Source: Euglena gracilis
Lineage: Eukaryota
NCBI GenBank assembly: GCA_039621445.1
Contig: CP154954.1
Span: 7,017,425 to 7,081,424, forward strand
Length of the DNA: 64,000 nt
Reading direction: 5' to 3'
Positions 1 to 53,212 of this stretch are shown one piece after another. The notes under the pieces are model-generated. The model was not told the origin of the DNA and did not search any database. It saw only the letters and a list, made by a program, of their open reading frames with translations. How positions within the stretch are numbered: position 1 is the stretch's first letter; each line of letters opens with the position of its first letter. The translations under genes were made by a program, and so were the position numbers.

Positions 1-3000
1 CGAAGCCAAACCTCCCGTCCCGTCCAAAAGAAGCCACCGAGCTTCATCCAGGGCTGCATCTGGAGCCCAAAATCACTGACAATAAGGTCCGGTGCGTTGT
101 CCACCCAACCCCCCTCCACTCCCTCTCACTTCTGGGGCACCAGCTTCCTAACTCCATTGATTTTCAAGCTACTATTCCCAGCCGTCTCCGATGGCGCTCC
201 ACTTTCGATGGGGAGGTGTTGCCGCCAGGCCGATTTGTTGGTTTTTTTGTTGTTTTGGGCAAGCCATTTTAAGGTGTTTTGAACTCTTTCAGAATCTCTG
301 GCGTGTTTATATTTTTCCATTTGGATTTTGCATTATTTTTTTGCTGTTTATTTTTTTAAAAAAAAATTGCATGTACTTGCATAATTTTTGGAGCAAAATG
401 TGAATGAGTGTTCGACATGTCCAAACGAATGTTGCATGATGAAATTTTTTCCTGAGGAGATTCCTGCAGAAATGTTTACTGCCCAGCTTGGTCTGTTTAA
501 ATGTTTTTTTTTCCTTTCACCCAAGCGCATTCCAGGCCAGGCGGCGCGGTCCGTGGCCTCGGAAACACAGCCCTGGCCGCGGAACCGTCGTCTTCCAATC
601 CTTCCCGCGCCGCAAAGAAGCAAAAGAAGGCAAAGGTACGCGCCGTGTTTGATGTGCCGAGTTGGAATCGGGTGGGGAAACCCAAGGGTGTCCCCCGCTT
701 CTCAACCATGTCAAGCTGCGTGAGAAGACAGGCGGCCCATGTGGCATTTAAGAATTCCGCACACCTGCGCACGAACCTGTGACGTGTCCGTCTGCTTCAT
801 TTTGCCCTGTTTGAAACTCCTTCTGTCGGTGACCCTCCGGCCTGTTGCCCAAACATGGCTGAAGTGTCTCGGGGGTTGAACCTGGAGAATTGCCAGAGGG
901 GGAGCTGCAGGCCCCCCAAAAACCTGCTGACTGTGGCACCACAAAGCATTGCAACCCACATATCTGTTGGTCCTTTCACCCTCGCCCGTCACTCGGCAAG
1001 CAAAATTGAGGGCTTGTCCATCAGTTTCTAAACCCAACGCCCTCCAGTGCCTTTGCGCCTGCCTCAGGTCCCAGCGTTTTGCATTGACTTTCAACATCGG
1101 GGCTTGGACCCCATCCAACACGTTTTGAGATGTGTGATCTTTTCCTCAGAGACCCAATCGTGCGCATATGCGCGCGATCCGGCCATCAAAGACCCCTCGG
1201 TGATGTGCTTGGAGACAACGGCTGCCTTCCAGCGGCGTGTTTGTTGGGAGGGGTTTCAAACAGGGGCCGAGAAGCCGAAGAGGTGGAAGTACCCGATGCG
1301 TCCACAGGCGCATGACACCTGCGTGAAGCATCGCCTCTCTGCCTGGGTTTTCAACACGGGCCATGGCGTCTCTCTTCCAATCGCGGCAAGTGCGCATGCA
1401 GTGTGTACCTCTGCGGGCGCGAGCTCGCGCGGTTCGGTGCTGAGTGTATTCCCTCTGGCTCGAGGTCTCCCGCACGGGTAGCCGAGGGCTTCCATTCCGG
1501 TCAATCTGCTGTGTTAAGTGCTGTCTTTTAGCGACCAGCTCGTGGCCAGGCACCGATGACCGACCAGGGCCGACCATGATTTTCAGGACCCCCCCCCCCC
1601 ATAGAACCCCCTTTGTGGGGGTTCTGACCAGGGACAACCGGGGCTGACCTGGGACAACCAGGGCCGACCAGGGCCGCCTTTTCATTTTTTGTTTTGTCAG
1701 CTGATTGTGCCCATGGGAAATGCTGGATAAGATCTTCCCTGGCCTGCAGTTTTTTGGCCGTTTGGTGACGCTTCAAATGGCGGGGTCGGCTCACACGCAG
1801 GTGCCCTCAATCGTGCCATGCGATGTGCACATGTTGTTCCAGCACCGCAAGGTCACTGTCTGCGGAGATTCAGAGGGGTTTCTTACTCACAAGTTTTGAG
1901 TGCCATATTTGCCATCTAACACTTTTTTCCTTTATTGCCCTGAGAATGAATGCCAGGCCAGAGGCAGGTATTACTCTTTTAGGTAGACCACCCCCTCCGA
2001 ACAGCAGGGTGAGAAGGGTGCTGAGTCAGCAGTGGTTCTGTTTAGGGGAGGGGATGTTGGGACCCCCCCCCCCCCGGGGGGCACCCCATGTTGATTTCCC
2101 CAAACAGCTGGTCCCCTTGGCCCCACCCCACAGAGGTTGGGTCGGTTGGTGCTGACCGCACCAGGCTTGTGCTTAGTCGGGTGCCTACCCCACGGGGAGG
2201 GGGGGTGCTAGGGGCAGGCACCCTATAGCACCCGATCCGACCCCCCCCGGGGGGTAGGGTTTTGGGGGGTGCCTGCCCCTAGCAGGCACCCCCCTCCGAC
2301 CCCCGGCGCCGAAGGCGCCGGGGGCCCGGAAAAGGCCATTTTCGATGAAAATTTCTTTCTGGGTCCCCCCCGGACCCCTATCCCCCCCGGGGGGGTGTGC
2401 CTGCTAGGGGCAGGCACCCTATAGCCCCCCCCCCCCTCCCCCCCCCAGTTGGTAAGCACAAGCATGGACCGCACCCCCCCCCCCGGGCCCAACAAAACCT
2501 CCACCCGTGGGGCAATCGGAACCACTTTGCTTTTTCAGGATTGCATTTGGTCAAATCTCTGGCTGCACCGCAGGTGGAGGCCGCCAGCGATGGCGGCAGC
2601 GAGGACGAGCAGACCCCGTTCGTGGTGGAGGAGGTGCTGGCGCAGGCGTACGCCAAAAAGAAGTGGTGCCCGGGGCAACGGCCTTTCTGCCCTTCCGCCG
2701 GCGTTGCCAGGCTGTGGGAAGCCCCAAGCCCAAGCTCCCAATCCAACTGCTTTGGGACTGCTTTACCCCAGGTTGACTTTTAAAGGACAGAGCAGTTTTT
2801 TTTTCTTTCGAAATGTCAGGAGTCTTCCCTTCAGGACCATCCAGAGGGCAAAGGGCTCCCAGTCGCCCCTCTGGAGCTCTTTCAGGACCGGAAATTTGGA
2901 AGTCGAAAAACAGTTTTTTTTATTTGAAGCATTATTTCCTGTTTCCCCCCCATTTTTTTGAAGTTGAAAGAGAAGTTGTTTGCACCAAATTCGACCTTTT

Positions 3001-6300: not shown

Positions 6301-6594
6301 GCACGGTCACCTACAGCCGCCGGTACTGTGTCCTGGACGAGCCCCGCCGGCCCAGCTCCGCCCCGCCGTCCCATCAGCCGCTTGGGGCAGGCCTCTCCCA
6401 TCGGTGTTGTTAAATTTTTGTGTTTGCCCGGGCAACAAGGATGCGCAAAAAAGCGTGTTTCTCTGCGGCTGGTTTTGGTTGCACCCAGGCGCCATGTATG
6501 TGTTAATTTTACAGTTTTTTTTTTGTTTTGAAAGGTTGTTTTGTTCCCCCAGATCCCCCGGGGGGTGGAAGGGTGTGGGTGGGCAGGTCCGGGG

Positions 6595-8187
6595 CAGACA
6601 TTCATTTAGTGTGGTACACCAAGGTTGTCATTTTGTGGTTCACTGTGGACACCAAATTTTTTTTTGTGGTTCACCTGTGGACACCAAAAATTTTTTTGTG
6701 GTTCACCTGTGGACACCAAAAAAAATTTGTGGTTCACATGTGGACACCAAACATTGGGGTCAAAAAATTGATTTTCCTAAAAATTTCTCGAAAATGGTGG
6801 GGAATTAAAGGAAAGGTCCGGCGACCTGAATTGAAGCCCTTTGAAGCCGTATCTAAGGGTATTTTGATTTCCCCGCAACTCCCCACCCAGCCCGAGTTAC
6901 GTCCATTTTCCGGCAAATTTGGGCCATTTTGTACAGTGGCCTGTTTTGATTTAGCCGTTTTAGGTCATTTTTGTGTGAAAAAGGTCTAAAACGTTCGAAA
7001 AAAAATCGAAAAGAAATTGCCCGAAACATGTTTCCCGGACCCGGAAGACCTGTTTTTGAGCCGAAAATGAGCGTTTTTCGACCCCCGTCCCCCCGTTTTT
7101 TTTTTGCCCGGAACCCACGCATTTGGGTGCAAATTTTTATATTTAGCCTCAAGGGGGTCTTAAAATACACACCTGGCGCGAAGCACCGGAAGTTTTTTTT
7201 TTTTGCCCCTGCAGAGGAGGGGGCCAAAATGCTTCCTTTTTCTTTTTTTTCCCCACCAGGCTTCTGCTTAAGGGATTGCAGTACCCCCCCCCCTCCCGGG
7301 GGGGGACTGGACTGCAGCTAGTCCAAATTTGGCTAGTGGGATTTCTAGCAGACCCCCCCGGGGGGGTCTGCAAGCAGGGCTGGCTAGTGGAAAATTTTTT
7401 CCAGTGACCGGCGCGACCCCCAAAAATGGCCAAAAATGCCCGTTTTTGGCCATTTTTGGGAATTTTTGGAACAAAATCTGCCAAAAACCTATTAGAAACC
7501 TCATTTCCACCTCGGTGCACAGCGCCGGAGGAAAATTTTTTTCCAGTTCGGGGGGCCCCTGGGGGGGGGAGGGGGGGGTCTAGCTAATCCATTTTTTCCA
7601 GTGTCTGGCCGATTGGCTAGCCAGTACCCCCCCCCCCCGGGGTCCTTAAGCAGAAGCCTGTTCCCCACTCTTTTTCAGTTTTCCCCCTATTTTGTGATGT
7701 CAAGCAATGAATCAAGTGATTATGTGTCAAATTTGGGCTTGGATTGGAAGTATTTGGTCTGAGAAGGACAGTTCTGAGGATTGTGTGTCCTTTTCCGACC
7801 TGAGATGTGACAGTGATTTCTCCTTTGGGAGGGGTGCGAACTTTTTAGGGAGGTAGTTTTGAACCCTTGGGGGGTGCGCACTTATTAGGGCACTGCGCAT
7901 AATTAGGGCATTGCGCACTTATTTGGGGGGGTTAACGGGTTTAACCGGAGCCAGGGTCCACAATTTGGCTGAGGTGTCTCAAGATCAATCAATTTCGATC
8001 CTCAATCAATCTTTATGGGCAAAATTTTTTGTGGACGCCAAAAATGTTTTGTGGTTCACTGTGGACACCAAAAAATTTTTTGTGGTTCACCTGTGGACAC
8101 CAAAAAAATTTTGTGGTTCATCTGTGGACACCAAAAAAAAATTTGTGGTTCACACGTCTTTTGTGAACCACACTAAATGAACGTCTG
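6595..8187. mobile_element. hAT-like non-autonomous element, family A, copy 1
   Basis: TIR cagacattcatttagtgtgg...ccacactaaatgaacgtctg; perfect TSD gtccgggg; subterminal arrays of about 29-bp tttgtggttcacctgtggacaccaaaa at both ends; contains a nested family B copy. Confidence 0.92.
7257..7660. mobile_element. hAT-like MITE, family B, nested in family A
   Basis: TIR caggcttctgcttaagg...ccttaagcagaagcctg (perfect 17 bp); perfect TSD ttccccac. Confidence 0.95.
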
Positions 8188-8316
8188 GTCCGGGGCTGGA
8201 GGCTTGGTATGGATTTGAGAGAAGATTGCCCTTGGACAGCCCCGATGGGGCTTTCTCAAAAAATTTCCAGCACTTCGCACGCCCCCCCCCCTCCACAGAG
8301 TTTTATGTTTCCTTTA

Positions 8317-11971: not shown

Positions 11972-12003
<32 letters not shown>

Positions 12004-15000
12004 GCACATACCATTGCCCATCACTGGATGTCTTGACGGGCAAAGCTCCCCCCACAAACGAACTCGGGGTTCCCGCGATAGGGAGGCCCGATTGACCCTG
12101 GCTGGGCCACCGCCCGCCCGCTGGCGAGGGCATCTTCCGGGCCATCAAGGAGGGCCGGCGGGTGGAGGTGAACCGCCTCGTGCAGCGGGACCCGTCGGTG
12201 CTCATCAGCTGCGGCCGAGGGGTCCTCGGCGCCGGTGACAATGGCGCAAAAACGCAAATTGCACTGTGGGTGGGACCACACAACCACTTCGTCCCTGGCC
12301 GACCCCCCCAAGTGAATGGTTTTTTTTAGATTGATTGGTTTTTGGGCCGGACTTCTCCCCCCAAACCAGAAAATTGACTGCTACCAAAGGCGCCGAAAAA
12401 ATTCCTTCTTGTGGTCAATTTCCTCTTGGGTTCCCGAGTGGCCGAGTGGTCCCCTTGACTTTCCCGGGAGTCGGTAAAAAATTGTTTGTTTGGGACCTCT
12501 TTCGGAAAGTGGTGCCGGATCTGCACACACCCACCCACCCACGCACAAACATGCGGATACACCTGCACATCTGCAAACAAATGAAATCATGCTTTCCTTA
12601 GGTTCACGTTTCCACATTATGTATTTTCTTTTCCATTATCATCATCATGTGTTTATTCAGTGTCCTTTGTTTAATTTTGCAACCATTGTTTTGCTGTTGT
12701 TGTTGGTGGTGGTGGTGGTGGTGTTGTTTCAGGAATGTGTGCACCCCAGCACCATTTCCTGTGGGAGAAGTCCCTTCGTGGGCGACGCCGTGGGGGCGAA
12801 TCCGATCCACATTGCCTTCCTCTACCGCCAGACAGAGATCGGCCAAACCCTCGTCCGACAATACCCCGAGCTGGCAGACAGGCGGACCTTTGCCTGGCGC
12901 GATACTGTTGTCTGGCACGCGCGCATGTGTGTGTGTGTGTGTGTCCATGTGTATTTCCTTTCGACCTTGGTTTATCGCCGCCCAGGTCTTTACCTTCCCA
13001 TTGAGCATTGCATTTGCATTCGTCTGGATGCGTGGGGCAGTGCTTATGCAGGATCAGCACTTTGGGGCGTTTTGTGTTTTCCAACTGTTGCATCTAACAG
13101 CGACCCTGTCTGACTCTGTTCCCACTGGCACTCTCGGTGGGAAGACTGAAGTGTGCTGCTCAATTCAAGAGAATGTGCATATCTGTGATTGCGCAGATGT
13201 ACCATCCCTCCTGTTCCTGAAAGGTTTCCCTACTCCCGACGTCGGTGTACGGGGAGGGGGAGTACAGCGGGGAGAACATCCTGCACATCGCCATCATCCA
13301 CCAGGACGTGGAGCTGGTGCGCTGGCTGCTGAACCGGGATCAGGATTTGTTTGCCGGATGAAAGTGGGTGCAGGCGGTGGGATTAGAGCCAAGCATTCCC
13401 CAGGTCTGGTTTTGTTGAAAACTCCTCTTGTCTTCTCCCTCTGTACTCCACAATCCCCTGGGTTTGTGCAATTGGGGGAGGTCAAAGTGTACCAACTTTT
13501 TGCACAGTTGCTACCTCCTGAGCATGTATGCATATTTGGAAGGCCCTGGACCTTCTGCAGCAATGGCACGGCGAAATTTCTTTGGCCCAAATTTCACAGT
13601 GGAATGCAAGGTACGTTGGAACTTTTATCGCTTTCAAAGTTAGCCATGAAGTGTACAGTTCTTGCATTCACACCCGTCGGCACAAAAAAATATTCTGAGT
13701 GGGACCCAGAGCTGCTCAACGCGGAGACCACTGGCTCGTTCTTTGCCCCCAGCGGGGACGTGTATTTTGGAGGCCCAGGGGTTGCCTCACAACCCAATCT
13801 TGGGGCTCCAAGCTACAAAATGGTGTCGGAGCCAGCCACTGCTCCTCCTAGTTACAAAACTCAATATTCTGGAATGGAGAGTTTTTTGGGGAGAAAATGT
13901 CTTGTAGGAAATATGTACACCTGAATAATCAGCACTGCAGTTTCAAGCGAAGCTTGGGAAAGGGTCTAGTGATGTTGCATTTGCTAGACGAAGAAGAGCA
14001 GGAGGAGGATGTTGACGTGAGGAATTTGTTTTGGAACGTTTTCTTGAGTGGTGCAGAGTGCACAAAGTCACAGGAATTGGTTCTTAATTTGCTGTTGTTG
14101 TTTTTGTTGCTATTGTTGTTGTCGTTGTTGGTGTTGCTGATGTTGTTGAAGGTATTTTTGCAGTATTTGAAAATATTGGTGACAGTCTTTTTGCGGGCGA
14201 CTGTGGGATACGATGATAGGAAATTCACCCCCAAATGCCAAATGCCAAATGTGTCTCCTTTCAGATTGAGACGGGCGTCCCGTTGGCACGGGACAGCTGT
14301 CGTCTCAGGTGGGCCATTTTGGCCCAATTTGTCGCAGGAAACTGAATGCCACCTGGATGCTCGTGGTGTATCCACTGCAACCGTCTGAGTTGGTCCCTGG
14401 TGGAGCTACAGCCATGCACATATGGGGGAGCCAATTGTACCCTTCCCATAGAATTGTACCAGTGTAGGGCAGTGTGGGCTGTGGAACGGTACCAAACCTA
14501 CACAGGAGAGAGAAACCTGTCAATGACAGTTTTGAGCCTCAAACGCGACGGGTTTGGCCGGTTGGCGGGCCCTGCCGACGGTACCCGCTGCTGTTCGCGG
14601 TGTCCAGCAACCAGATCGACATCCTGCAGTACATCCTCGCCACCCGCAACGCGGAGCGCTGCCGCATGCGCGGCCACTTCAAGAACCAGCCCAGGGCGGT
14701 GCACGGCGACTGTTTCGAGTAGGAAGGCCACAAGCAGAAAGCTGGCAACCGAGGTGTGGTCACGCTTCCTTTTAGCATGGTCGCTGGAGATTTGAACAAT
14801 TTATATTGTGGCTTCGGAAGCTTGGGCATTCATAACCCCCACGCTGTCCCAATTTACGCCGAGATTTCTCCTTGCAACAGAACAACAACAGAACACCAGT
14901 ACAAGAAGAGCACCTCACCATCTCCGTCCAAGTGGAGAGCATACTCTGTGGGGCGTTTGTGGTTTCCCATAAATGAACCTAGTTCAGCCGACTGAATGGC

Positions 15001-18000
15001 TGAATGACAACAAATACTGGTTGCGTCGCCGGCCGGCCGCCGCCCTGGCCGAGATCACGACCACCGATCGCTTCGGGAACTGCGCGCTCCACATGGCGGT
15101 CATCCATGGGCTGGAACGCTCTGTGCCTCCCCGAACGGATTGCCACGGGAAGTTGTCCACTGAGGAATTGGAGAGGCCTAAATAGATTGTCGACCCAGAA
15201 AAAACGAATTTCAAACTCATATTTTCAGATATGAAAATATGTCCCAATAGTATGAAGGAGCATATGTCAGGGATCAATGAGTGATTTTGGCCAATTTTCC
15301 CTCCAACTCCGTTGGTCCACCGGGGGAAGTGTGTATTTTTGTATTTTTCGGCCAAAGTTTGCTGAAACCTTAAAACTTGGCCCAACCTGAATACCGAATC
15401 CAGGCCTAAATTTAGGCCTGAATGCGTGACCGTAACCCGATCCCTATCATTAACCCTGCATCCAGCGTCTGAAAACCCAACTGAAAAAGTGGTGTGGTTT
15501 CCAGGACCCCCGAAATTGGGGTACTGATGTGTTACTAAAACAGGGACTGGACCCCTCTTCATACTACTGGGACGTGGGCCCAGTAGCAGGCTACCAGCTT
15601 TGTAGTTGCATACAAAAAAATTTGGCTCAAAAAGGCCAAAAGTTTTAGGCCTAAAACTCGGCATAATTTTGGGAGGCCTAGCTCAGGCCTAAAAACTAAA
15701 TCCAACTCCGAGGCCTAACCATATCCCTAGCCCTGTCTCAATCATTTACGCCAATTACCACCCTCGGGGACCACCGCAAAAGGGAGGGGTCAGGCGAACC
15801 CTTGGTCGTCCGAGGCAAAACTACGATAAGGGCCTTTAAGTTGAACAAGCCGAAGATCCTGGGGGCAATTGCAAATCCTTCATCCTGATAAGTGTCCGCA
15901 TCCGGTCGCCGGAGCGGGATGAAACGAATACCTTGAGTTTCTCGGTGCCTTTCTTTTGAAGAGCCGAAAGCTTTTCAGAATGCGGATCAGTCTGAAACAA
16001 GGAAGCTGGTGAACTGTGGGAGGGGCGATGCCGAAAGTGAACAGGATCGTCACTGGCAGGCGGCGAATGGCACAACACCGTATCCTGCGTCTTTGTTGGG
16101 AGTGATTCGGCAAAGAGCGCTTCAGCGGTCGACCTGCCCGATATGTACGACCAACTGCCGTCTTTATTGAATGCCTCTTTCCCTTGTGTTGCACTTGGTG
16201 CGAATTGCATGTTCCTGAATCCAAAAAGAAAGTGGGGGAGATGAAGCCGGAAACGATTGCAGTCTGCAAAAATATGGTGTTCGGCTCTGCGAGGTTGCAT
16301 TCTTTTCAGTGTTTTTGATGGTAAGTGATTGTTGGCATCCAAAAAAGTTGAAAAAGTTGACGTTGGCCAATTTGTGTGACTGAGCAACAGATTATGGTGG
16401 AAGAAAAGCCTTGCATGCAGGCAGACAGACACGGAATTCATACGGATTTTGGTGTTTGTATCGCCATTTTTTTCAACTCACATCTGCTGCCTGCCTGTTA
16501 TCTGGCTGCGTTTGCGCTGTTTGCCTGTGCATGCGTTCATATGTGCACATTGATGTACGCACATTCATACTCACATGTGCATAATCATATATGTGCATGC
16601 GCATGTGAATGCGATTCCGTGTGTGTTCGCGTGTTTTTTGTTCGGTTTGTGGTCTGGTGCTCGGAGCGTCGCACGCAGGCACCCACAGCGCGTGACAGCG
16701 GCTGCCCGCGATTTCGTGGTGGAGGAGATGCGCCGCCACGGGCTGACCCACACCGACGTGCGGCACCGCCTCAATGTGGAGCGGCTCACCCCGCTGGCCC
16801 TCGCCGCCGCTATGGGCCAGGAGCGCATGTTCCGCCCAGCCGGCCTGTCTGCCCCCCCCCCTGTGCCCCGCAAGAACTAATTTGCCGACAGGTTTTATTT
16901 ATATCTGCTTTCAGCTTTCGAACTGCTGCTGGCTGTTACAATTGTTACAATATTAAACAGTATGATTTAATGACAGCCTCTATGGGTAGGGTTGCAACTG
17001 TCGCTCCTAAATGGTCTTAGGGTTTGGGTGGGCCAAAGTCAGGGAGTCAGGCCGAAATCGTGCCTAAATTCTGGCCTAAATTTTGCCTATTTTTTTCAGC
17101 CTGAATTTAGGCCAAACGGCCCAAATGCTCACCCTGACCCTATTCCCAAACGCCAACCCCATCCCTATCTTACCCAAACCTTTGCCTTATATAAAAAGTG
17201 GACTTTCCCTATTGCACATTTGTCATGGGCACCTTCGGTGGGCAGCACGAAATCGCAGGTCGTTAGAGGCTGCCGATTTGGTAATATACAAAAAAGAAAA
17301 AAACGTAAAATAAAATTTGTAAAACAAAACGGTGTGCCAAAATTTTTTTCCCCTCGAGTTGTATGGGTGGGTACCAGGGATTTTTTTAGTCGTGGACCCC
17401 CGGGGGGGGGAGGGGGGGTAGGCAGGGTTCGATATAAGGAGGGCGTACATGGTTTAGGTGGGCGGGTGCCCCCCCCCCCCCCCCCCCCTCCTGGCCCGCA
17501 GGGGGGGGGGGTCCGGACCACCCCCCCCCCCCACCTGCAAGGGGGTTCCGGACCGACCCTGGGGGGGTACCCGGGACCCCCCCCAAAAAGGGTCAATTTT
17601 TTCCTCCAGCGCTTCGCGCCGAATTTTTTTTGCATTTTTGGCCAATTTTTGCCCAAAAAGTGCCCAAAATGGCACTTTTGGTCGTTTTGGGGGGTCAAAA
17701 ATTTTCACCCTGACCGCGCCACTGTTTAGGTGGGGGGGGTCCCCCCCCCCCCCCCCCCCCCCCTCCTGGCCTGCAGGGGGGTCCGGACCACCCCCCCCCC
17801 CCCTCTCCTTATATCGAACCCTGGGGGTAGGGTGGGTGGGTCCGACCGAGCCCCCCCCCCCCCCCCCAGGGGGGGGTCCCCCGGAGGGGGGTGGGATATA
17901 CTTTTCGGCCGAGAATTTTTTGAAAAAGCGCTATTTTAGCACTTCGCGATTTTTTGTGGGTCCCCCCGGGACCCCCCCTCCCCCTCCCCGGTTTCCTGGT

Positions 18001-21000
18001 GGGTACTCAACCCCAAGCCCCAAAGCCTTTGTCAGCCCATGGGATGGTGGTGGTAGTGTTAGCGTGGTCCTGCTCCACATGGCAGCTCTGCCACAGGACT
18101 TGGTGCAAATGTGACGCTGGTTATGTGATTCAATTGGTGACCCTTCCTGTTTGCCATTCAAACCTCAGCACAGGCAAACGGGCCGGGGGGTGACAGGAAA
18201 ATGGACTACCCCACTCGCCAATTCTTTGAATCCACAGAATTCTCAAAGTGGACAAATCTTCTCAAAGTGGAACCCCAAGCCGCGTTGGGTTGGGCAATTC
18301 ATTAAATCTGATTAACATCAAACAATAGTTGTCGAGAACGGACCCCTCAACCCGTCAATGAATAGTTATCCAGCGACGACTGTCGGCAAGTGTCAAGTAT
18401 TTTCTGGGTCGGGTCCGAACCAGATTTGAGTTCGTATGTCTGCACCGTTGCCTCTGGACAGCGGCTGCTTCGCACCACATTTTGGCCAAGAACTCCGTCA
18501 TTGCCTGGGATTATGGCCCTGTGCAGGCCGTGCTGTGTGGCCTCTTGAAAACTGCACACAAAGAGAACCACCCACCATTCGTTTGTGTGGGTGATTGCGT
18601 GCATTCTTTAACCCATGACACCCCCGGAGGGGGTGTTGTGGGTGGTTGGGTAGGTGGGCGAGATGTCAAAAATTGTTTTGGTGGGTTGGCAACCCAGAGG
18701 GAATTACCTGGGCAACCCTGAAAAAGTACCCCATCGGAGGTTGAATAGCTCCCCCCCCCCATCCAAACACCGTGCCTTGAGACCATACCGTTGCTTAAGG
18801 TGTGTCTGACACCACTCCCAATCTTCAAGGAAGGTGGTTTTCAATGGCTTGTTGGCAAAAAGGGCCAAATATTTTGGCATTTGCCCTGCGGCATTCACAA
18901 GCGAGTGAGGAGTAAGAAAAAGTAAGAAACGTTGGACAAAGTGCATAATTTCTTTGCGAACTCACGCTCCGAGTAAATTCGAATTTTTTCAGAGCCGGCG
19001 CCACCACTCCATCCCCAAACTAATTCGGATACTGCGTGACCGCTGTGGCGCATGCGCTGGCACCAACCGCCCTCACACCACCAGGCAGAAGGTTTCTTCG
19101 GCGGTACATGCTTGTGGTCCGAGTTATCCGAAAGACAGTGTCAGTCAGCCTGTGTGCCAGCTCCCCCCCCCCCAGGAATCGGCCAAACAGTCAGGGTGGT
19201 GGGTGGGGGGGGGGGAGGGTCGACCCCCACCTCCTCCTGTATTTCCAGGAGCACCGATTTTCGATCCCAAATATTTTTTCCAGGCCTTCGGCCCCGGGAG
19301 GAAATCTGTGAAGAATGCTGTGGTGGGTGGGGGGATCGACCCCCCCCCCACCGGTGTGCCCCACCCCCTCCGGCGACCCCCACACCGCCGCCTGGCGCCG
19401 TGACGTGCAAGCTGTTCCCGCTCGGCGGGCTGGAGCAGCCGTTCATCGACCCGGACACGGGCCGGTTCGTGAAGACCTCCATCGAGTGCATGTGCGCCGG
19501 CGCCCAGAGCCCCGCCCAGGCCGACAGCAAATGGCGCCATGCATCCATCGCCATGAAGTTTCGATGCCCCCCCCCCCCCCTATGTCGAAACCCCAACCTA
19601 GTTGGAGGACACCTTTTTGGAGGTTTTGTCCAACTTCTGCATTTTTGCTGCCCAAAAGCTTCCATTTTGTAAACTTTTTTTTTGGCAAAAATTTGTTCAA
19701 AAAAAAGAAAAAAACAGCAGTGCCAAAAGGATAATTTTAACTTTGGGGGGTTGGGTCTCGGGCACCCCACCAGTCTGTGGAATTTGTTTTGGGCCTCTTG
19801 TCAAACGACCGACCTCCAGGTTGGAGGGCATCTTTTTGGTCAACCATCCATCCAATGCAGGGAGCGCTACCCCTGGGCTCCAAGCGGGCCTTCCAATCTC
19901 CCTGACGTAACCAGGAATAAACTTCGGCCCCAGCCAGTTCTTTCTTTTCAAACCAGGCAGATACGGTCTGCCAGCATCACGGAGTGCCTCAAATTTGTCG
20001 ACAACAAAATTCCCAGCAAAGTGGAACAGGCACCGTGGTAGCGGCTGCGCCACAGACTCCTGTCGCACTTCTGAAAATAGCACCCAGACAAGTATCAGAG
20101 ACACACAACGCTCTTGAACTTGCGAAGCCTCATTTGGCAAGTGTCAGTGCTTTTTGTTGGGTTTCCAGCGTTTCAACTCCATAAGTGCAGGTCATGAAAT
20201 GCTGGTTTCCTGAATGGTCTAGTGGGCGTTTTTCAGGGAGTATTTCTCTTTTTTTTCGCCTTCCAACCGGCTTGGAGATGCCTACCCTCCCCCCTATGTC
20301 CAACGACCCCCCTATGTCCAATGACCACCCCCCCGGTCAGAGGACACCTTTTCGGAGGTTTGACCAAATTTTTGGTCCCGGCGCACCGGGACGAAAAATT
20401 TTGCCCAAAAATTGGCCAAAAATTTGGCCAAAATGCCATTCTTGGCACTTTTTGGACAAAAATTTGTCAAAATTGCCCAAAATTTTCGGCGCGAAGCGCC
20501 GGAATGGAAAATTTGGGCATTTTTGGGTGGGTAGGGACCCGGGTACCCACCAACTTTCTTTTGACCCCATGTCCAACGACCACCCCCCCCCCCGGTCAGA
20601 GGACACCTTTTTGGTCACTACCCTATGTCCAACGACCACCCCCCCCCCCCGGTCAGAGGACAGAGGTTACCGGTCATTGGACATAGGGGGGGGCGGGTAC
20701 TTAAAGTTCACTTGGCACGCGATTCCTAACTCCAGCCTCCAACCTACGCCGGACCCGGCACCACGCGCCGCGGCTGGACCTCGTCGTCAGCGCGGAGGTG
20801 CGGCAGGTGCTGGACAAGAAGTGGGACGCGTTCGGGCAGCGCATGTTCTACCGGAAGCTGGCGGTGGCCCTCGGCACTGTGCTGGCCTGGACCGCCGCCA
20901 GCATCATTCCCGCCCAGGGGGTGGCTAGAGCTACTCTCCCCCCCATGCCCAATGAACGCCCATGCCCAATGAACAGGGGGTGTTCGGACTGTCTAGCTTA

Positions 21001-23186: not shown

Positions 23187-23222
<36 letters not shown>

Positions 23223-29762: not shown

Positions 29763-30022
29763 CCCCTGAAAGGAAATCCTTGTCCCCAGGGCTGAATGGG
29801 AATCCGGGACAAGGGTTTTCTTAAGTCGGAGGGGACCAGGAAGTTGTCAGGGTCCCCGGCACCGGCCAACCTGTCAGGGTCATTTTTCATTGACTTTCCC
29901 TGAATTGACCAACCTGGGAAACTGTCAGAGGGTCTTTGATGCGGGCCAACCTGTCATGATAAGAAGTTGTCAGGGTCCCCGGTACCGGCAGACCTGTCAG
30001 TGGCAGTTTCCCGGGGGGGGGT

Positions 30023-31810
30023 CAGACATTCATTTAGTGTGGTACACCAAGGTTGTCATTTTGTGGTTCACTGTGGACACCACAAAATTTTTTGTGGTTC
30101 ACCTGTGGACACCAAAATTTTTTTTGTGGTTCACTTGTGGACACCAAAATTTTTTTTGTGGTTCACCTGTGGACACCAAAGTAATATTTGTGGTTCACAT
30201 GTGGACACCAAAAAATTTACCACCGCCTGCTGACATTTGCATCATTTTCTTTCTCATCAACAGCAATGAAGCAATCTTCTTTGAACATATTTGACTCAGG
30301 CGGCGTAATTTGGCCAAAAATTCTGGTGCTCTAAAAACAGAAGAGGAAGCGGAAAACCACTTCCAAAAAAAAGGGTCATATTTTCGATTTTTTTTTTGAA
30401 GAGGTTCTGATTTTGGCCAATTCCGGTGGACGTTTGGCTCACAGTGAAGGAGACCTATACAATCGAAAACAGACCTAAAAAGGCCAACTTATTTTCGAAT
30501 TCTAGTAAAATCAACAAAACCAATCAAAAAATACATGAACAGGAGGAACTGACAAAAACAAGCGTTGTTTCTGCTGCCGTAGGCCCCGAAGGAACGAAAC
30601 AGAAAAATTAAAAAATGGAAGCGGTAAATATTGCATTCCGCTTCAAACGCAGGAGATGTGCAACGAAAACTGAACACAGTGAATCATACAGAATGTAATG
30701 TAAAAATGTGCATGATGTTTGCACACCAAAAAGGAAGCGGAAAACCGCTTTGAAAGAATCCGTAACAAAAATAGTATGAATTGAAATGATCAACAATGAT
30801 CACCAAACGATATTCCAATCCCAACAACAACGAAGAACGTTAACATTTATGAAATTTATGAAAATAACAGAAACTGAACAACCTGAACAAAAATTGAATG
30901 TCATTATCCAAAGTGCATAATGCAAACACGTCAAACCACGTGGAGACAATTGCACGATTTACGAAGGGTAGAACAGGCGAAACGATGCAGACCTTCTGTT
31001 CATTTCCCTGTGCTCCACCTGGAAGGAAGAACATTTCGAAATGACATTGGCGTAAAACCTGCAAAAAAACAGAGCAAATATGAAGCGGTTATCCGCTTCC
31101 TCAGGCTGACATAATACTTTTTAATTATCTCATAGTGCCAAACTGCAAAAACTAGAATGAGGCTGACACTTACCCTTCTGAATGAAAAACTATACTGAAT
31201 GCGGTCTTTCATTGAATGGTCAAGTTGAAGATCTGACACCACAGCAATGAAGTGGCTTTCCGGCTCCTACCTCAAAACAAAGCACATGGCATTGATTTTT
31301 CAGGCACTTTTTCAGGCATTGAGGCACTCGGCACTCAACTGACATCCCACAATGCCCCAGAACGCTCTCAATGTCCGCAGCCATGCCAAAGCCCCACGAT
31401 AATGTCGCGTGTTTCTGCTTCCATGAAGCGGAATTCCGCTTCATCGACGCCAGTATTTAACTTTTTGATGGTATCCTTGTTGGGTAAGTTGTCTATACAG
31501 CACGTCTGCTTGAGAACTCTCGATAGCAATCTGTCCAATTTCAACTGCCACGCTTCGTGGATTGAGCCGGGGCCAAGGCTCACAATGTGGCTGAGGTGTC
31601 TAAAGATAAACCCGCCTTTAGGTGTAATTTTTTTTACTTTTTTTCGATCCTCAATCAACTTTTGTGGACCACAAAATTTTTTGTGGACACCACAAAAATT
31701 TTTGTGGTTCACCTGTGGACACCAAAAAAAATTTTGTGGTTCACCTGTGGACACCAGAAAAAAATTTGTGGTTCACACGTCTTTTGTGAACCACACTAAA
31801 TGAATGTCTG
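30023..31810. mobile_element. hAT-like non-autonomous element, family A, copy 2
   Basis: Same TIRs and subterminal arrays as 6595-8187; perfect TSD gggggggt; different AT-rich interior; inserted into the poly-G end of a family G element. Confidence 0.92.
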
Positions 31811-33253
31811 GGGGGGGTTGGTAATGGTATTCCTATCGTGCTTCTATCCCAGGAGGTTTCTAAGTAAAATACTGGCAGAGGGCTTCGGGGAAAGGCCAAA
31901 ATGGCCGTCTCGCAGCTCACGGGACCATATCTACCATACCTATGTCTATATCATAGCACATGTGTTGCGTGTTGCAGCGTTTGCTGTGTGTGTTTTTGTC
32001 TGCACGGGGGAGGACGGCGGTTGTGACCCTCACCTGGCAGAATCCAGTGAACGTGGGACATGCATTGGTGGCAAGCAGACAGGAGTCTGTTGTGGTGGAT
32101 GCTTTGTGATTTTTTTGGGTGGGGCGGGAGGGTGCAAATGGTTTAGTAAACACCAGCGGTCTTTTAGCCGAACGGAAGCCAAAGCCTGCCGACGGATGTA
32201 GACAGGTGGGGTATGGCACGCTTCCCAGCGCCCCACGTCTCCGCAAACTGCACATCATCCTTCTGTTGCTCCCCAGCAACACTGTGAAGGCGCTCACCCA
32301 TACCCCCTTCCTGCGTTTTTTGAAGGTTCCTGCTGCTTTGCCATGGTATTTGGATGCCCCAATTTCGTCTCATACATCATATATTGCACACGCTCCTTTT
32401 GTCCAAGCACACCCCAGGAAGTTCACCTGCAACGATGGTGCGTTCCTCATCTCGTCAGAGTCTCTGACTGTGATTTGTCAAGAGGAACACATTTCATCAA
32501 TTTAATATAATTTAATTTTATTTAATTTTAAATTTAATAATTTATTTTATAAAAAAATTATTTTAATTTATTTCATTTTTTTTCTCTTTCAATTTCCCTG
32601 TTGCGCAACAGGAAGTCTCAAAGAAAATGAACAGTGGTGGCAGTTTAACGGCAAACATCATCGTGTTTTGCTGGGCCACCTGCCATTTCCCCTGAATCTC
32701 TTCCTCCCCAGGGTTCAAGGTTCTGGTGTCAGCTCTTGGTTGTTAATTACATTAGTAAGTGTTTTACTGTAAAAATTCCGAAAAAGCATCCCCACGGAGG
32801 CGACACTTCCAGTTTTTGATCTCCGTTGCTAGTCAAGCCCCCTGATACGGGAGGGCCTGGTGGGGGTGGGTCGACCCCCCCCACCATAGGGTTTAGGGGA
32901 TTCCTACCCGCCCCGACTGGACACAACGACACTGTCTAAATACGCTGGTCTGAGAATACTTTTCAAGTAATATGTTGCTTTGCATTTGTGCTCAATTTTT
33001 TTCTTTCGACTGGGAGAAGCTGAATTAGTCGACCTTGTTCAGATTTTCACTTCAGGGGCTGTTGACAAAGAGATGCCAACTGACGAAGATGACCCCCCGC
33101 CGGTCCCGTGGTCCGGGCCTCATCTCCCCCCCCCCCCCGGAAACCTGCTGTGAAAACCCGGGAAAAATATACCCGCTGGCTGGGAGGTGCGCTTTATGTT
33201 CGAAGACCCCTGGACTGCCCCTGGGGGGTGGTCCCGGGCCGGGGGGGGGGTTA

Positions 33254-35159: not shown

Positions 35160-35171
35160 ACCCTCCCACTA

Positions 35172-35514: not shown

Positions 35515-35564
35515 TACTGTAACCCTCCCGTCCCGGGCCGGAGGCCCCGGTATGGGTTCCGGAC

Positions 35565-36142
35565 CAGGCTGTTGCTTAAGGGATTGCAGTACCCCCCCCC
35601 CCCCCCCCCCCCCGGGGGGGCTGGACTGCAGCTAGTCCAAATTTGGCTAGTGGGTTTTCTAGCAGACCCCCCCCGGGGGGGGGTCTGCTAACAGGGCTAG
35701 CTAGTGGAAAAATTTTTCCAGTGACCGGCGCGAAGCGCCGAAAATTTTTTTTGGGACCCCCCAAAATGGCCAAAAATGCCCGTTTTTGGCCATTTTTGGG
35801 AATTTTTGGAACAAAATCAGCCAAAAACCTGTTAAAAACCTCATTTTTTTTTTTTTTTTTTTTTTTTTTTATTTTATTTTTTATTTTTTGTTTTTGTTTT
35901 TTATTTTTTTTTTTTTTTTTTTTGAGTTGCATTTTTTCCTCCGGCGCAGTTTTTTTTTTTTTTTTTTTTCCTCCGCCCGCACACAGCGCCGGAGGAAATT
36001 TTTTTTCCCAGTCCGGGGGACCCCCGGACCCCCCCCCCCCCCGGGGGGGGAGGGGGGGGGCTAGCTAGTCCACTTTTTCCAGTGTCTAGCCGATTGGCTA
36101 GCCAGTACCCCCCCCCCCCGGGGGTCCTTAAGCAAAAGCCTG
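35565..36142. mobile_element. hAT-like MITE, family B
   Basis: TIR caggctgttgcttaagg...ccttaagcaaaagcctg; perfect TSD ttccggac; internal poly-T expansion. Confidence 0.95.
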
Positions 36143-36269
36143 TTCCGGACGATGCGCCGAAAAACGTTTTTTAGGAAATGCCCTCAGACGGGGAGGGGGG
36201 TCCCGCGCCGGGCTGGGTGGGGGACCCCCCCCTCCCCCGGAGGCCTTAAAACGAAGCTTGGGCGGCCCA

Positions 36270-42200: not shown

Positions 42201-45200
42201 ACCCTGGGGGGGGGGGGCGTTCAGATGGGTGCGCCGTTCGGTGGGTCGGGGGCTGCCGGCCTCCCCGGCGGTTGCACGCGCCGCCGCTGACGCCGCTGGG
42301 CGGGGCTGCCGCGCCGCCCCCCTTCCCTGGCCGGTGCGGTGCGGCGCGTCCTGGCTGGCTGCGTGCCGGGCGAGGGACCACACCAATAATGCACGGGCCC
42401 CATGCTTGCCACCTGTTTGACCAATTCCTGCTTCCCAATTCCAAATAGGGAGATAAGGTAAGCCCCCCCCCCCCCTCCATGCCGCTGGGGACACTGTCGC
42501 CAGACAAGTTGGCCAGCACCGCAAGCACAGACAGCTTCCCGTGGCCTGATAGTCTCAAATTGGTTATCGAGCTTGGGAAGGGGGGCGTCCTTGATGGGGG
42601 AGAAAATCGACTGGAGGGGAAGCCATTTTGGTTGTTGAGGCAGGTGTTTGGGGGGGGTCCTGACCCCCCCCTCCGGGTAAGGTGGTACCACTGGTGGGGC
42701 GGTCCGAAACCCTCTAGACGTTGGTAGAGGCCTGAGAGGGAGTCCGGACAACTCCCCCTTGGCAGGCTCCAAAATCACTGAGAAGTATTTGGGGAATCTG
42801 CATGCCGGGAAGTTCAAAATGTTTTTTTTTTCTTTTGGTCACAATGCACAGGTTTTCATGTTTCGGTGTTTTCCACATTAATTTAAAATCAATAAAATCG
42901 AAACACTTTGTATTTATTTTCAAGAAAAACAGTTTTCCACATTTTGTGGCTTGGCATCAGGCCATTTGACTGGTCACAGGTATGAAGATTTTCTAGGTCC
43001 CTGATGGGTTTGACACCCCACCCCCACTTTTGGGGATTCCCATGCATCCCTGAACACCCAGAATCCTAAGTAGAATGGTGTTCTGGTAAGGAGCAGCCTG
43101 GTGTAAGGACTGCAGGGTTTTTTTTTCCAGTCTTGGACCACTGGGGGGGTGGGTGGGTCCGGCCGGGCCCCCCCCCCCCCCGGGTCTACTCTACTTAGTG
43201 GGATCTACTTTTCGGCTCCAAAGGCGCCGATTTTTTTTTGAAAAGGTGCTAATTTTTGCATTTCGCGATTTGTGGCCTTTTTGGGGAAAAGTGGGTTGGG
43301 TCCAGGGGTTTTTTTTTAGCCTTGGACCCCCCCCCCCCCCGGGGGGTGGGGTAGGGGCTGGTGGGTATATCTTTTTCGGCGCCGAAGGCGCCGAAAATTT
43401 TGAAAAGGTGCTATTTTTAGCATTTTTGGGCAAAAGTGGGTGGGTCCCCCGGGACCCCCCCCCCCTCCCCCCGGGGGGGCCCCACCCCTGGGGGTGGGTG
43501 GGTGGGTGCCGACCTTCTCCCCCCCCCCCACCCCTGGTTGGGTCCCCGGGACCCCCCCTCCCGCAGGGGGCCCCCCAGGGGGTGGGTGGGGGGGACCCCC
43601 CTCCCCCCGGTCTTAAAAATAAACCCTGAAGGGCTGCCACAATTATCGATCATTTCTCTTGTATCGCATACCCAGCAAAATGGTTCTCCAATGTTGAGCA
43701 AGTAAAAAATGATTTCCAAAACTTCAGTGTATCTGCCTAGTCTAACAAGGCTGTGACAAAGAGGCTTTTTTTCTGCATCTCTGTGCGCGTGTGTGTGCGC
43801 ATGCGCCCGCACACGTGTGCGTGTGCGAACATGTGTCTTTCTGTGACTGTGTGTGCGTCGTTTCCTCACCGCACCCTGCTCAGCTTTGCCGAGGTTACCT
43901 GCCCGGACGACCCGCAGGCAGACGGGCAATCGCTGGACGCCATCGCTGAGCACAGGCTTCCGTTTTATTTGCTTTTTTCCACCATTGTTGGAATTGGTTT
44001 TTTCCCTGCAAGTCTATCGCTTCGCTGTTCCGACGGTTCAACATCGAGATTTCCTCAAGCCGGACGGTATCATGCCACTCCTGGGGACCCTCGACTCACC
44101 CAACAGTGTTCGGGAACACCTGTTGGGCGTCCACTCCGCCCTCCAGATTTCCATTTGTGCTTTTTTCCATTGCCGGTGCCGACGGAAGCGTAACTGGGGC
44201 ACAGTGTGACGGTCTCGCCAAGCCCCTGGGGCTGACCAACGGCTCAGACTTGGTTCCCGGCTCAGTCCCACGCCCGCTGTGCACCGGCAAGGTTGCCGGG
44301 GAGACGGCGGGGGCCACACAAACGAGCGGCCTGTGGGGGCCGCGGGGTCTTTGTGCCTGCAGGGCCGTGGGGTCTTTAGAAGCTGATTTGATACATGGAA
44401 AAAACCAGCCTTCGCATGGAGGAGGTAACTGGTGGTCGAAATCCTCAGAGGCGTTGGGCACAACTGTTTGAAAGTATCCCTAGGCTCTGTTTACCTGGCA
44501 TTTCATGTGATACAGTGCGGATGTAAAAAATGCATTGATGTAGATTAATGCATATAACATATTATGTACTTTTTCCAAAGGCATCATTGTCAGAACCATC
44601 CATCATCATCAACGTCCTCCTCCTCATCAGCACAGCCATCCTCGTTAATATCACTGTTGCTCCACTCTTATTAGCATGCTAGTGGTAGCGCAGTGTCAAC
44701 GTTTTTGTCGTTGTTGTGATTGTTTGTTGCTTTGCTGCAAGGATGTTTTTTTGGGCCAAAGCCAAAGGATTTCCTTGTATCTTTTCTAACGCCATTTTTG
44801 TACGAAACTTGTGGGAAACATCTCTATACACAACCCAGGATTTTTTTTACAGGGAGGTTGCACCACCCATCCACGCTTCCAACCCTTCCCATTTTTCTGG
44901 AGCGCTTATTTTTAGTTTGTTTTAAAATTTTTTAAGAATACATGTCATGCTTAATCAATATGTCAATGCAGGTCCACTGGTCCCCAACCACGTCTCAGTC
45001 GAATGTAATTTGCTCCGGAGAGTTGCCTCCACAGTCGCCGAACCGGCCGTCCGCAGTCCCAACCATTCCTTGTCGGTCGTCGGGGGAGAGAGGAAGGTTC
45101 CGACTAGGATGGGATCCCCGGTGATGTCCCTAATGTGATCGAGCTTTTGGGGATGGACACCCATCGTTCATTTCACACCGGTGTGACCCCACCGCTGGCT

Positions 45201-47585: not shown

Positions 47586-50500
47586 ATGCTGGAGATGTCC
47601 CCCCGCCAGGGCTCGCTCCGCGCCCAGAGCGACCAGCAGCGGATGCACCAGGCCCAGGCCGCTGCCCGGCGGTGGGCTCTTGCCTGAGGCTGTTGGCCCA
47701 GGGCCAGGCTTCTTTTGAAGTCAGAAGACCCCGGGGGGGGGGGAGGGTGGGTGGGTCCGGGGCCGGACAGCCAGGAGGGGGTCCCGGGCCGGAAGCCTGG
47801 GAATGGGTCTGTCGCGCAGCGCGGAAAATTTTTCGGAAATGCCCTCAGACGGCTCGATGTTTTGCGGTCCCCCCCGGGGGGGTCCTGCGCCGGGCAGGGT
47901 GGTTGGGGGATCCCCCCTCCCCCCCGGGGTCTTAAAAGGATGCCTGCCCAGGGGGACCAGGGGAGATGGGTTCCAGCCAGGGGTTTTCTTAAGCTGGAGG
48001 GGACACTGCACCCAGCTAGCACCCCTTTTCAAGCCAGTCCCAGCTGAGCTGCACTCCTCCAGCTGGCACGAAATTCTTTTCCCTGACGAACTCGGCATTT
48101 TTTCCTCCCCCCCTCCCCCGGGAAACTGTCCTCTAATCCCCCGCACCCGCTAATCTGCCCTCATAGAAATGTCTCCTCGCATTGCACCCGCTAACCCGTC
48201 CTCATAAAAATGTCTCCCAGCCTTGTACCTGCTGACCTGTCAACTAGCAAATTTTTGCAAATGTTCACACGTTTTAGTTGAAAAGGCAACCGTTTTCCAA
48301 GTTGAAAAATTTGCCAACCTTGGTTTCAAGATTGTGATTACAAATTTGTGGGGAAAACCCCACATTTTGGATTTTTGTGTAAAAAATTGTCATTTTTTTG
48401 CGGGACCCGCCCGGGAAACTGTCTCCTGTCTCCGTACCCACTGACCTGTCTTTATGGGACCTGCCTCCTACCTCTATGCCTGCTGACTTGTCTAGAGACA
48501 GTTTCCCAGGAGGGGTAGGTACTCGGCCCCCCCAGGCAATTGACGCCCCCGGGCAATTGACGCCCCCGGGCAATTGTCACTCCTGGCTGTGCCGGCCAAT
48601 TTGTCACCCTGGGAAATTGTCACCCCCTTCCGTGCTGCCCAGTCTGTCACCCCCCCCCCCGTTTGCAGTATTGCACTGTGAACTTTCTTTTCGCCGACAT
48701 GACTCGATTGATCTTCTATTTCGCTACAACGTGCTGAGAACTTTCGCATACCAAACGCTCTGCACATTATCACGACCATAGCTGCATTTTTCCTGCGTTC
48801 ACTTGTGTTTAAGATGGTGTTCTTGGTCATTTGGTTTAAATGTGGCTTACATGGGTGGGCAATTGACGCCCCCGGGCAATTGACGCCCCCGGGCAATTGT
48901 CACCCCCCTCTGTGCCGGCCAATTTGTCACCCTGGGAAATTGTCACACCCCTCCGTGCTGCCCAATTTGTCACGCAACAATTGCCCAAGGGGGGGGGGCG
49001 AGTATGATGAGAAACGATTTGGAATTGGCGAGGCTTGTGCCCCTCTCCATGCCCAATGGAAAAAATGCCCAATGAACAGAACCCAAATTTTGCCATTTAC
49101 ACAGTTACCATATACCTGTCATAACCCCCCCCCCCAAATATAACCCCCCCCCCCCGGTTTTATGTTTGGGCGGAAATTTGACGACCCCGAGGGGGGTTTA
49201 TATTTGGGGGGGGTTTACATTCGGTCGGAAAAATCAGCTTCCCGGCAGGCTCCAGTAGTCACTTTTTCGGTCCAAAATCACAAATACGCCCACCCTTGGG
49301 GGTCCAAAAACTTCATTTTTCGGGCGAAGGATCAATTTTCACATGTTTTTGGTAAAAATTGTTCCCAAATCTGCAAAAAATCACAATTTCGGGAGAGATT
49401 TTGTCGAAAAAATTTCCTTCCGGCGCTTTGCGCCGGAGGGGGGGGGGTTTACATTCGGGCGGGATTTCAGGGTCCTCAGGGGGGGGGTTATATTTGGGGG
49501 GGTTTTGTATTTGGGGGGGGGGTTTGTATTTGGGGGGGGTTTACAAGATTAGCGAACTCCCATGTCCAATGATCGTCCCCGTCCACACCATCTGGGTTGT
49601 CACCTTCAGGGCCTCACCCCACCTTACCCCACCACAGACCCACCGGGGGGTCATGCATTGGCGGGCTTTCACAAAACACAGTGGGTGGATGGTTTTTGGG
49701 ATTTGGGCCCGGAGAAGTGCTCGCCCCCTCCGGGAGACCTGTGATCAGAATTGCAATGCGGAGAAACCTTCCCCACAGGCCTCTCCTGCGGCAGCCGTCT
49801 GCCTGGGAGGGCATCTTCTGGGCGGTCAAGGAGGGGCTGCGGGACCGGGTGCGCCAGTTGGTGGCCGAGGACCCCGCCGTGCTGACCCAGCCCAGCCAGG
49901 CACTGCTGGCTGGTGGGGAGGGGTCCGGTGCCTGTTTGGGTCGCTTTTCTTTGGAACCTTGTGGCTGGCCGAGTGTTTTATGCATTGTGTGGCGTATTTT
50001 TTTTGAAGAATATTGGCGGGAGAAAGGCAGGTGCAGACATCTGTGTCTCCCGTCTGGTGGTGTTGACTGGCGGTAGACTGTCGGTTTGGCCGGCGCTATA
50101 TCTGTGGATGCCAGGAATATCGCCGTTTTTAAGACTGCGGATTTCATAATGTTTCTGTATTGGCTTCCATGTCAAAATAGTGCAAATGGGAACTCCTCTT
50201 GCGGAATTTAGGGCAACTGGGCTGGGACGTTCTTGCCAGAACCGCATGCAGGCTGACGCAGTGGGGGCCAGCCCGATCCACGTCGCGTTCCTGTACTGGC
50301 AGACAGAGATTGGCAAAGCCCTCGTGGAAGAGTTTCCGAAGCTGGCACTCAGGAAGATCCGCACAGTGCAACGAGAAGAACTAAATACGCCCCTTGCCAT
50401 TTCAAGCATTGCCTTCCCATATCCAACCAAGGTGGCTCCATTATTTAAAGAGAATTGTTTGTTTTTGGGTGAAGCCGCAGGATTATGAGACAACTGCATG

Positions 50501-53181: not shown

Positions 53182-53212
<31 letters not shown>

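Follow-up and report, generated by a model that had tools for sequence, protein, structure and literature searches.

Locus organization and host genes

The window analysed here is a stretch of 64,000 nucleotides from Euglena gracilis (assembly GCA_039621445.1, contig CP154954.1, positions 7,017,425 to 7,081,424 of the forward strand) that contains two tandem genes and at least 13 small non-coding elements, each bounded by terminal inverted repeats (TIRs) that begin with CAG and each flanked by an 8-bp target site duplication (TSD). Together the elements take up approximately 6.4 kb (10%) of the window, which has a G+C content of approximately 50%, abundant poly-C and poly-G tracts and dense repeats. 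Both genes lie on the + strand, and weak Pfam matches predict that their products are TRPV-like channels in which ankyrin repeats accompany an ion-transport domain. The proteins closest to the two channels are EG_transcript_3144 and EG_transcript_820, which are E. gracilis transcript products in EukProt, and the exons of both genes exhibit mostly about 45-96% identity per exon to E. gracilis proteins by tblastn. Judged from its sequence, the window is euglenid nuclear DNA. The genes, the elements and the two sites that serve as comparators for intron gain are listed in Table 1.

Inventory of the TIR elements

The element ends and TSDs were recovered by a TIR-plus-TSD scan and by eye. Eleven of the elements are MITE-sized (MITE, miniature inverted-repeat transposable element), and the remaining two, at 1593 and 1788 bp, are above the usual MITE size. 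TIR lengths are 12-28 bp with no more than two mismatches in 10 of the 13 elements. An earlier reading of this DNA from its letters and open reading frames (ORFs), referred to here as the sequence-only reading, had listed eleven insertions with 8-bp TSDs. All eleven were re-found and are real, eight with a perfect TSD and three with one mismatch (29490, 43113 and 47705), but the list missed 43303-43536 and 57409-57779, the latter itself a predicted intron. The end signature described for them was also recovered, with CAG at the start of all eleven and CTG at the end of ten; the exception is the 2162 element, which terminates in CATG and thus has one TIR mismatch within the CAG/CTG triplet. The eleven do lie outside exons as had been claimed, four of them in introns of both channel genes and the others between or beside mapped exons.

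Table 1. Channel genes, TIR elements and comparator sites in the window
Feature	Position (length)	Strand	Span with TSDs	TSD	TIR	Setting
TRPV-like gene 1	12126-28800	+				19 exon segments by tblastn, ~18 mapped introns
TRPV-like gene 2	47562-62810	+				17 exon segments by tblastn, ~16 mapped introns
Family A element	7257-7660 (404 bp)		7249..7668	TTCCCCAC, perfect	17 bp	Within 6595-8187
Family A element	35565-36142 (578 bp)		35557..36150	TTCCGGAC, perfect		Within degraded family D remnant ending at 36260
Family A-like element	57409-57779 (371 bp)	+	57401..57787	ACCCAGTC/ACCCGATC, 6/8	18 bp (13/14)	Predicted intron 11 of gene 2
Family B element	6595-8187 (1593 bp)		6587..8195	GTCCGGGG, perfect	25 bp, up to 2 mismatches	GTGG(N1-2)CACC arrays in both subterminal regions; host of nested family A element
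Family B element	30023-31810 (1788 bp)		30015..31818	GGGGGGGT, perfect	28 bp	Subterminal GTGG(N1-2)CACC arrays
Family C element	17423-17823 (401 bp)		17415..17831	GGGGTAGG, perfect	23 bp	Within 17375-17998
Family C deletion derivative	28548-28666 (119 bp)		28540..28674	ATTCAGGG, perfect		Last mapped intron of gene 1
Family D element	29490-29762 (273 bp)		29482..29770	CCCCCGAA/CCCCTGAA, one mismatch	14/14 over first 14 bases	~0.7 kb downstream of last mapped exon of gene 1
Family D element	47705-47946 (242 bp)		47697..47954	CCCAGGGC/CCCAGGGG, one mismatch		First mapped intron of gene 2
Family E element	17375-17998 (624 bp)		17367..18006	GTGGGTAC, perfect	6/14	Intron 7 of gene 1
Family E element	43113-43628 (516 bp)		43105..43636	AAGGACTG/AAGGGCTG, one mismatch		Host of 43303-43536
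Family E element	43303-43536 (234 bp)		43295..43544	GTTGGGTC, perfect	Weak 3' TIR	Nested in 43113-43628
Family F element	2162-2466 (305 bp)		2154..2474	GACCGCAC, perfect		Single copy; starts CAGGCTTGTGCTTA
Empty-site comparator, gene 1 exon	21871..22071	+				Uninterrupted at site homologous to 57409 insertion
Second paralog-specific intron, gene 1	13338..13702	+				3+CAG...CTG+5; stem 10/12; junction repeats 5/8

TSD length is 8 bp in all 13 elements, nine of which have a perfect TSD, three a TSD with one mismatch and one a TSD with two. The scan, which called for a CAG...CTG pair, a TIR of at least 10/14 and an 8-bp TSD with no more than one mismatch, identified eight structures, compared with a mean of 0.2 and a maximum of 2 in 100 simulated first-order Markov sequences. 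The scan left out 43113, which was removed by the low-complexity filter, and 2162 and 17375, which fail the TIR/CTG criteria. Among the 157 CAG...CTG pairs with a TIR of at least 11/14, perfect flanking repeats were found six times at k = 8 and not at k = 6, 7 or 9-12. The 17375 element was accepted because its alignments to 43113 and 43303 have approximately 83% identity, and not because of its TSD.

Families, subterminal motifs and nesting

Analysis by blastn and pairwise alignment of the 13 elements provided approximately six families. Identities within family A are 83% and 66%, and the two copies of family B are 92-95% alike at their ends with unrelated interiors. The end form CAGG(C/G)TT...TAAG is common to families A, C, D, E and F. 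The 5' end of family B is CAGACATTCATTTAG, and this family contains 24 of the 31 GTGG(N1-2)CACC motifs of the window, packed within approximately 200 bp of both ends in clusters that look like transposase-binding arrays. Four insertions are nested (7257 in 6595, 17423 in 17375, 43303 in 43113 and 35565 in the family D remnant), and insertion therefore took place in successive rounds.

A repeat copy at approximately 39769-39990 aligns for a short way across the insertion site of the family B element 30023 after removal of the element and one TSD copy. This copy belongs to a dispersed repeat made of units such as CTGTCAGGGTCCCCGGTACCGGCCAACCTGTCAG, which is located at 26574-26648, 29827-30024, 39715-39977 and 48402-48937, and it is a partial empty-site comparator for that insertion.

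Within the window the elements have TIRs, a TSD, no coding capacity and several related copies, as is characteristic of MITEs and other non-autonomous TIR transposons. The several distinct non-coding TIR families with uniform 8-bp TSDs that the sequence-only reading had described are thus present, with the same TSD length in 13 of 13 elements.

Correspondence between the TSD and the intron code

The code of the nonconventional introns of Euglena consists of a 3-nt spacer, CAG, a paired stem, CTG and a 5-nt (sometimes 6-nt) spacer, and a purine is also wanted as the first base of the downstream exon (PMC12501133). Cuts located 3 nt before the CAG and 5 nt after the CTG of an element would, since 3 + 5 = 8, remove the element plus one TSD copy. 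In the predicted mRNA the left TSD copy contributes bases 1-5 and the right copy contributes bases 6-8, and together they restore the original target. The ends are inverted repeats, and this precise-removal arithmetic therefore holds in either orientation. The equivalence 8 = 3 + 5 is arithmetic on the published rule and not an experiment. The layout of 3 nt, CAG...CTG and 5 nt is exhibited by 12 of the 13 elements with their TSDs, the exception being 2162 with its CATG end, and the mini-fold of each of the 13 contains a terminal stem. The earlier statement that the CAG...CTG ends are the same as those of the intron stems agrees with this layout. No paper describing source families or the 8 = 3 + 5 match was found in a literature search that covered PMC12501133 without its SI Appendix, which includes a sliding-distance figure.

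The same geometry was examined in the introns of the two channel genes, with the best CAG...CTG stem chosen in the vicinity of every one of the 34 junctions between mapped exon segments. The reading-frame class required by an additional 8 nt was found for all eight stems with at least 10/12 pairing, for 12 of the 17 with at least 9 and for 14 of the 22 with at least 8, where one third is expected by chance. When the 3+5 rule was applied to 12 other stems, ten gave an alignment contiguous across the junction, one had an insertion or deletion close by and one failed. At least ten other introns of both channel genes therefore fit the 3+5 geometry by homology.

An element at the position of intron 11 of gene 2

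The family A-like element 57409-57779 lies exactly in the gap that separates two gene 2 exon segments, and the element with the 3 nt before it and the 5 nt after it (57406-57784) is at the position of intron 11 of this gene. The predicted splice of 57406-57784 provides ...WEAEHPIAHAAIQALEV... / SPNHYGCVGYWEAEHPIAHAAIQALEVLVLLS, which is collinear with EG_transcript_3144 (...PNHYGCVGYEEAEQHPIAHVAIQALEVLVLLS...). The gene 1 exon at 21871-22071 is uninterrupted at the homologous site, and its nucleotide alignment with the spliced gene 2 is gapless across that site; relative to gene 1, gene 2 thus has the element and exactly 8 further bases. When 57396-57794 is folded as RNA, the two element ends pair (z = -3.5). 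The element is 34% diverged from its family and has a TSD of 6/8. The ready-made intron of the sequence-only reading finds support in this element, which would serve as intron 11 of gene 2 and is absent from the tandem paralog.

The two genes exhibit a synonymous divergence (dS) of 0.46 and a ratio of nonsynonymous to synonymous divergence (dN/dS) of 0.33 over 279 codons; this ratio between the paralogs indicates that the interrupted gene 2 has been under constraint. At least two predicted nonconventional introns are private to one paralog, namely 57406-57784 and 13338-13702, the latter of which is absent from the gene 2 exon 50857-51030, and the pair is a natural comparison for intron gain and loss.

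Candidate mobilizing enzyme

A Pfam scan of 269 of the 356 window ORFs of at least 85 amino acids identified no transposase domain, in line with the earlier remark that no transposase ORF is visible; the other 87 ORFs, which are low-complexity or Pro/Gly-rich, and ORFs below 85 amino acids were left out of the scan. Searches with the family B end (26-mer) and a subterminal 32-mer of family C gave no metagenome matches.

Transposons of the hAT superfamily have TIRs of approximately 10-25 bp with a consensus start of YARNG, and a target preference of nTnnnnAn. Autonomous members encode a transposase with a BED zinc finger, a DDE (RNase H-like) domain and an hATC dimerisation domain. Their non-autonomous derivatives, including MITEs and Ds-like elements, have an 8-bp TSD and short TIRs. 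TSDs of 8 bp are also made by Merlin, P and some Mutator elements; Mutator has long TIRs and a TSD of 9-11 bp, and P has a 31-bp TIR. The elements of the window resemble hAT-derived non-autonomous elements in their 8-bp TSD, their short CAG-initial TIRs and the subterminal motifs of family B, and resemble hAT-derived MITEs in having no coding capacity and an internal sequence that differs between copies. They differ from hAT in that C often takes the place of G as the fifth base of the TIR, the preference for a target sequence is weak and no hAT transposase is linked to them. Given the strict 8-bp TSD, short TIRs that open with CAG and the motif arrays near the ends, a hAT-type enzyme is a plausible trans-acting mobilizer and the likeliest candidate. 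Six element ends had no occurrence in the E. gracilis contigs of the PMC8101967 supplement, a tiny sample of incomplete sequences.

Other repeats and features of the window

A second MITE family is located at 20281-20699, 35165-35514, 39242-39663 and 54023-54442. Its members have G/C-rich inverted ends with CTATGTCCAAYGACC and are flanked by TA on both sides in all four copies, which is a TSD of the Stowaway/Tc1-mariner type. With this TA-flanked family beside the CAG group, TSD length varies between superfamilies and not within the CAG group. The family C element 17423 includes a segment, 17562-17681, that shares 75-81% identity with the interiors of the TA-flanked family (20428-20551, 35306-35426, 39400-39522 and 54183-54303), and an internal module of approximately 120 bp is thus common to elements with unrelated ends.

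Two arrays of 43-bp tandem repeats (33336-33534 and 35003-35158) are located approximately 1.5 kb apart in inverted orientation, and the region between them holds the duplication 33622-34047 / 34337-34777. The whole structure may represent an element of the foldback type. At 3946-3966 and 4451-4471, the 17-bp direct repeat TTTGTATCACTCTGGAT bounds an A/T-rich stretch of approximately 500 bp that contains inverted repeats, and this segment may be another type of insertion or a local duplication. A minisatellite at 9685-9794 is composed of approximately 10 copies of the 10-bp unit TGACTGGGCG. Two exon-like stretches on the + strand at 2567-2670 and 3213-3318 (...FVVEEVLAQAYAKKKW / RVLLRWEGLPRWKATWHERDENPRL...) jointly resemble a chromodomain when judged by eye, and the ORFs that contain them gave no Pfam match.

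Interpretation and alternative explanations

The elements are probably both non-autonomous transposons and latent introns, one of which appears to be an intron already. This reading builds on the anatomy of the elements, the length of their TSDs, their nesting, the empty site in the paralog and the 3+5 geometry seen by homology; a hAT enzyme, excision from RNA in this organism and current mobility are what we infer from them. A transposase acting in trans would cut the target with an 8-bp stagger, and each insertion would duplicate 8 bp. In RNA, the inverted ends would pair into a stem recognized by the nonconventional-intron machinery, which would remove the element plus 8 nt, equal to one TSD copy, and return the pre-insertion mRNA in either orientation. 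The interpretation offered by the sequence-only reading is retained for the families, the intron-like ends and the case of a ready-made intron. Its suggestion of recent activity, which was drawn from the perfect TSDs, is not, as copies within a family are only 66-95% alike.

Several observations weigh against the reading of the elements as transposons and latent introns. The same within-family identities argue against very recent bursts at this locus. The 2162 element would probably not splice, with a mismatch in its CAG/CTG pair. In nine of the 13 elements the sixth base of the right TSD copy is a purine (A in the predicted intron 57409-57779); in the other four it is a pyrimidine, which the code disfavours. 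The one stem of 12 that failed the 3+5 test is that of gene 2 intron 9. A perfect 8-bp flanking repeat surrounds 12 of the 84,855 CAG...CTG pairs, and as half of these 12 have weak TIRs, a perfect TSD alone is not significant; 17375 and 43303 themselves have poor TIRs. The removal of 57409-57779 from mRNA is supported by collinearity with transcript proteins and with the paralog, all of which is evidence from homology, and the protein alignment to EG_transcript_3144 has a one-residue insertion or deletion two residues before the junction. With regard to hAT, YARNG is matched by five of the 13 5' ends, those starting with CAGGG, the rest being CAGGC or CAGAC; in the TSDs, the T at position 2 of nTnnnnAn is present in six of 13, the A at position 7 in five and both in three. 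No transposase of any kind was found among the window ORFs scanned.

It is scarcely credible that the 8-bp repeats beside the elements match merely by chance, in DNA that is G/C-rich and of low complexity. Several TSDs are indeed G-rich, and the six perfect flanking repeats with weak TIRs include some that are poly-C or belong to other repeats, but the eight observed structures stand against a simulated mean of 0.2, the repeat length peaks exactly at 8 and homologous copies of the elements are present elsewhere in the window. A chance origin was rejected for the 10 strong-TIR elements and is a minor possibility for 17375 and 43303 alone. Very improbable as well is a history in which the 8-nt repeats and inverted ends stem from intron gain by break repair or from RNA mobility through reverse splicing of circular introns, the non-genic copies being dispersed introns. 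A strain-specific new intron in gapC of E. agilis has 8-nt direct repeats that Milanowski et al. read in 2016 as the footprint of break repair (PMC4770533), and nonconventional introns leave as full-length circles (PMC11282704). Neither route accounts well for the same families being located at non-exonic sites and inside each other, nor for every copy being flanked by its own 8-mer matching the local target, whereas an RNA-borne copy would bring the 8 nt of its donor and not duplicate the new target; multi-copy families with conserved ends and subterminal arrays are also unexplained by break repair. We consider it improbable that 57409-57779 is a disabling insertion in a decaying paralog, with a coincidental match to the code, and not a spliced intron. 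No protein identical to gene 2 was present in the collection, where the best match is 88%, and a second query, exon 12, gave no match. By tblastn, each of the 17 exon segments mapped in gene 2 nonetheless aligns to E. gracilis proteins, the paralog dN/dS is 0.33, ten other introns of both genes share the geometry, and the insertion is old, with two TSD changes and its family divergence, yet the 3+5 rule restores the frame exactly.

A smaller but tangible weight belongs to the alternative that the elements are real transposons with 8-bp TSDs from a superfamily other than hAT, whether Merlin, P, Mutator or an undescribed one. The only DNA transposon for which we found a record in E. gracilis is Merlin, whose two families there share with the elements an 8-bp TSD and the host genus (PMC8101967). 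Our literature search met no report of hAT in Euglena, and the YARNG fit is limited to the five ends given above. The short TIRs, the subterminal arrays and the strict 8-bp TSD nevertheless fit hAT better than Mutator or P, and all 13 elements begin with CAG immediately after the TSD. The ends of E. gracilis Merlin begin with GGTACTTGT and those of Merlin generally with GG (PMC8101967 and its supplement), and the described Merlin copies differ further in encoding a DDE_Tnp_IS1595 transposase (PMC8101967). Merlin was rejected as the source: its end motif is present once in the window, with one mismatch, and this is chance level, as the motif was matched at least once in 68 of 100 shuffles.

Relation to nonconventional introns and introners

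A MITE origin of nonconventional introns was put forward in a 2014 paper, according to which no euglenid transposon was then known (PMC3935182). A 2024 review describes TSD-like repeats at the junctions of these introns (PMC11282704), and the 2025 splicing-code paper in PNAS calls their origin still unclear and reports junction repeats in 84% of introns (PMC12501133). Its Dataset S7 lists 129,984 of the 157,875 CAG-CTG introns of E. agilis as 'slidable', that is, with junction repeats, and the validated introns of its Dataset S9 start with CAGGGTT and CAGGCTTG (PMC12501133). Starts of the CAGGGTT type resemble those of families C and E, and starts of the CAGGCTTG type those of families A, D and F. 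The elements of the window are like euglenid nonconventional introns in having CAG at +4..+6, CTG at -8..-6 and a stem of inverted ends, and the introns also have direct repeats at their junctions and are gained and lost between close relatives. They differ in that 12 of the 13 are not introns themselves but lie in the introns of others or outside mapped exons, and in having intact 8-bp TSDs and multi-copy families.

Introners are transposon-derived spliceosomal introns found in Micromonas, Aureococcus, dinoflagellates and Fritillaria (PMC11282704). They are comparable in that a transposon with TIRs and a TSD enters an exon and is removed from RNA, with the TSD helping to restore the reading frame. 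In contrast, the spliceosome removes introners, using splice sites that element and TSD make up together, whereas removal of the window elements would use the non-spliceosomal pathway of Euglena, with fixed distances of 3 and 5 nt from the stem and circular introns.

A wider proposal, which we regard as evenly balanced, is that euglenid nonconventional introns as a class (approximately 158,000 CAG-CTG introns in E. agilis) are insertions of one CAG-ended, hAT-like group with an 8-bp TSD, and that the 3- and 5-nt offsets exist to erase one TSD copy. A bolder corollary would be that the end recognition of the splicing machinery descends from the transposon's own end-binding protein. The origin of the nonconventional introns of Euglena and the mechanism of their removal have been open questions since the 1990s, and the window provides concrete candidate source elements in the form of several families with free, nested and one intronic copy. 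The agreement of an 8-bp TSD with spacers of 3 and 5 nt would explain why insertion into an exon is harmless, and an origin as TSDs is a ready explanation for the 'slidable' junction repeats of most such introns. If the proposal is true, the splicing pathway would be an RNA-level 'precise excision' system for a transposon, whose free copies would still seed introns.

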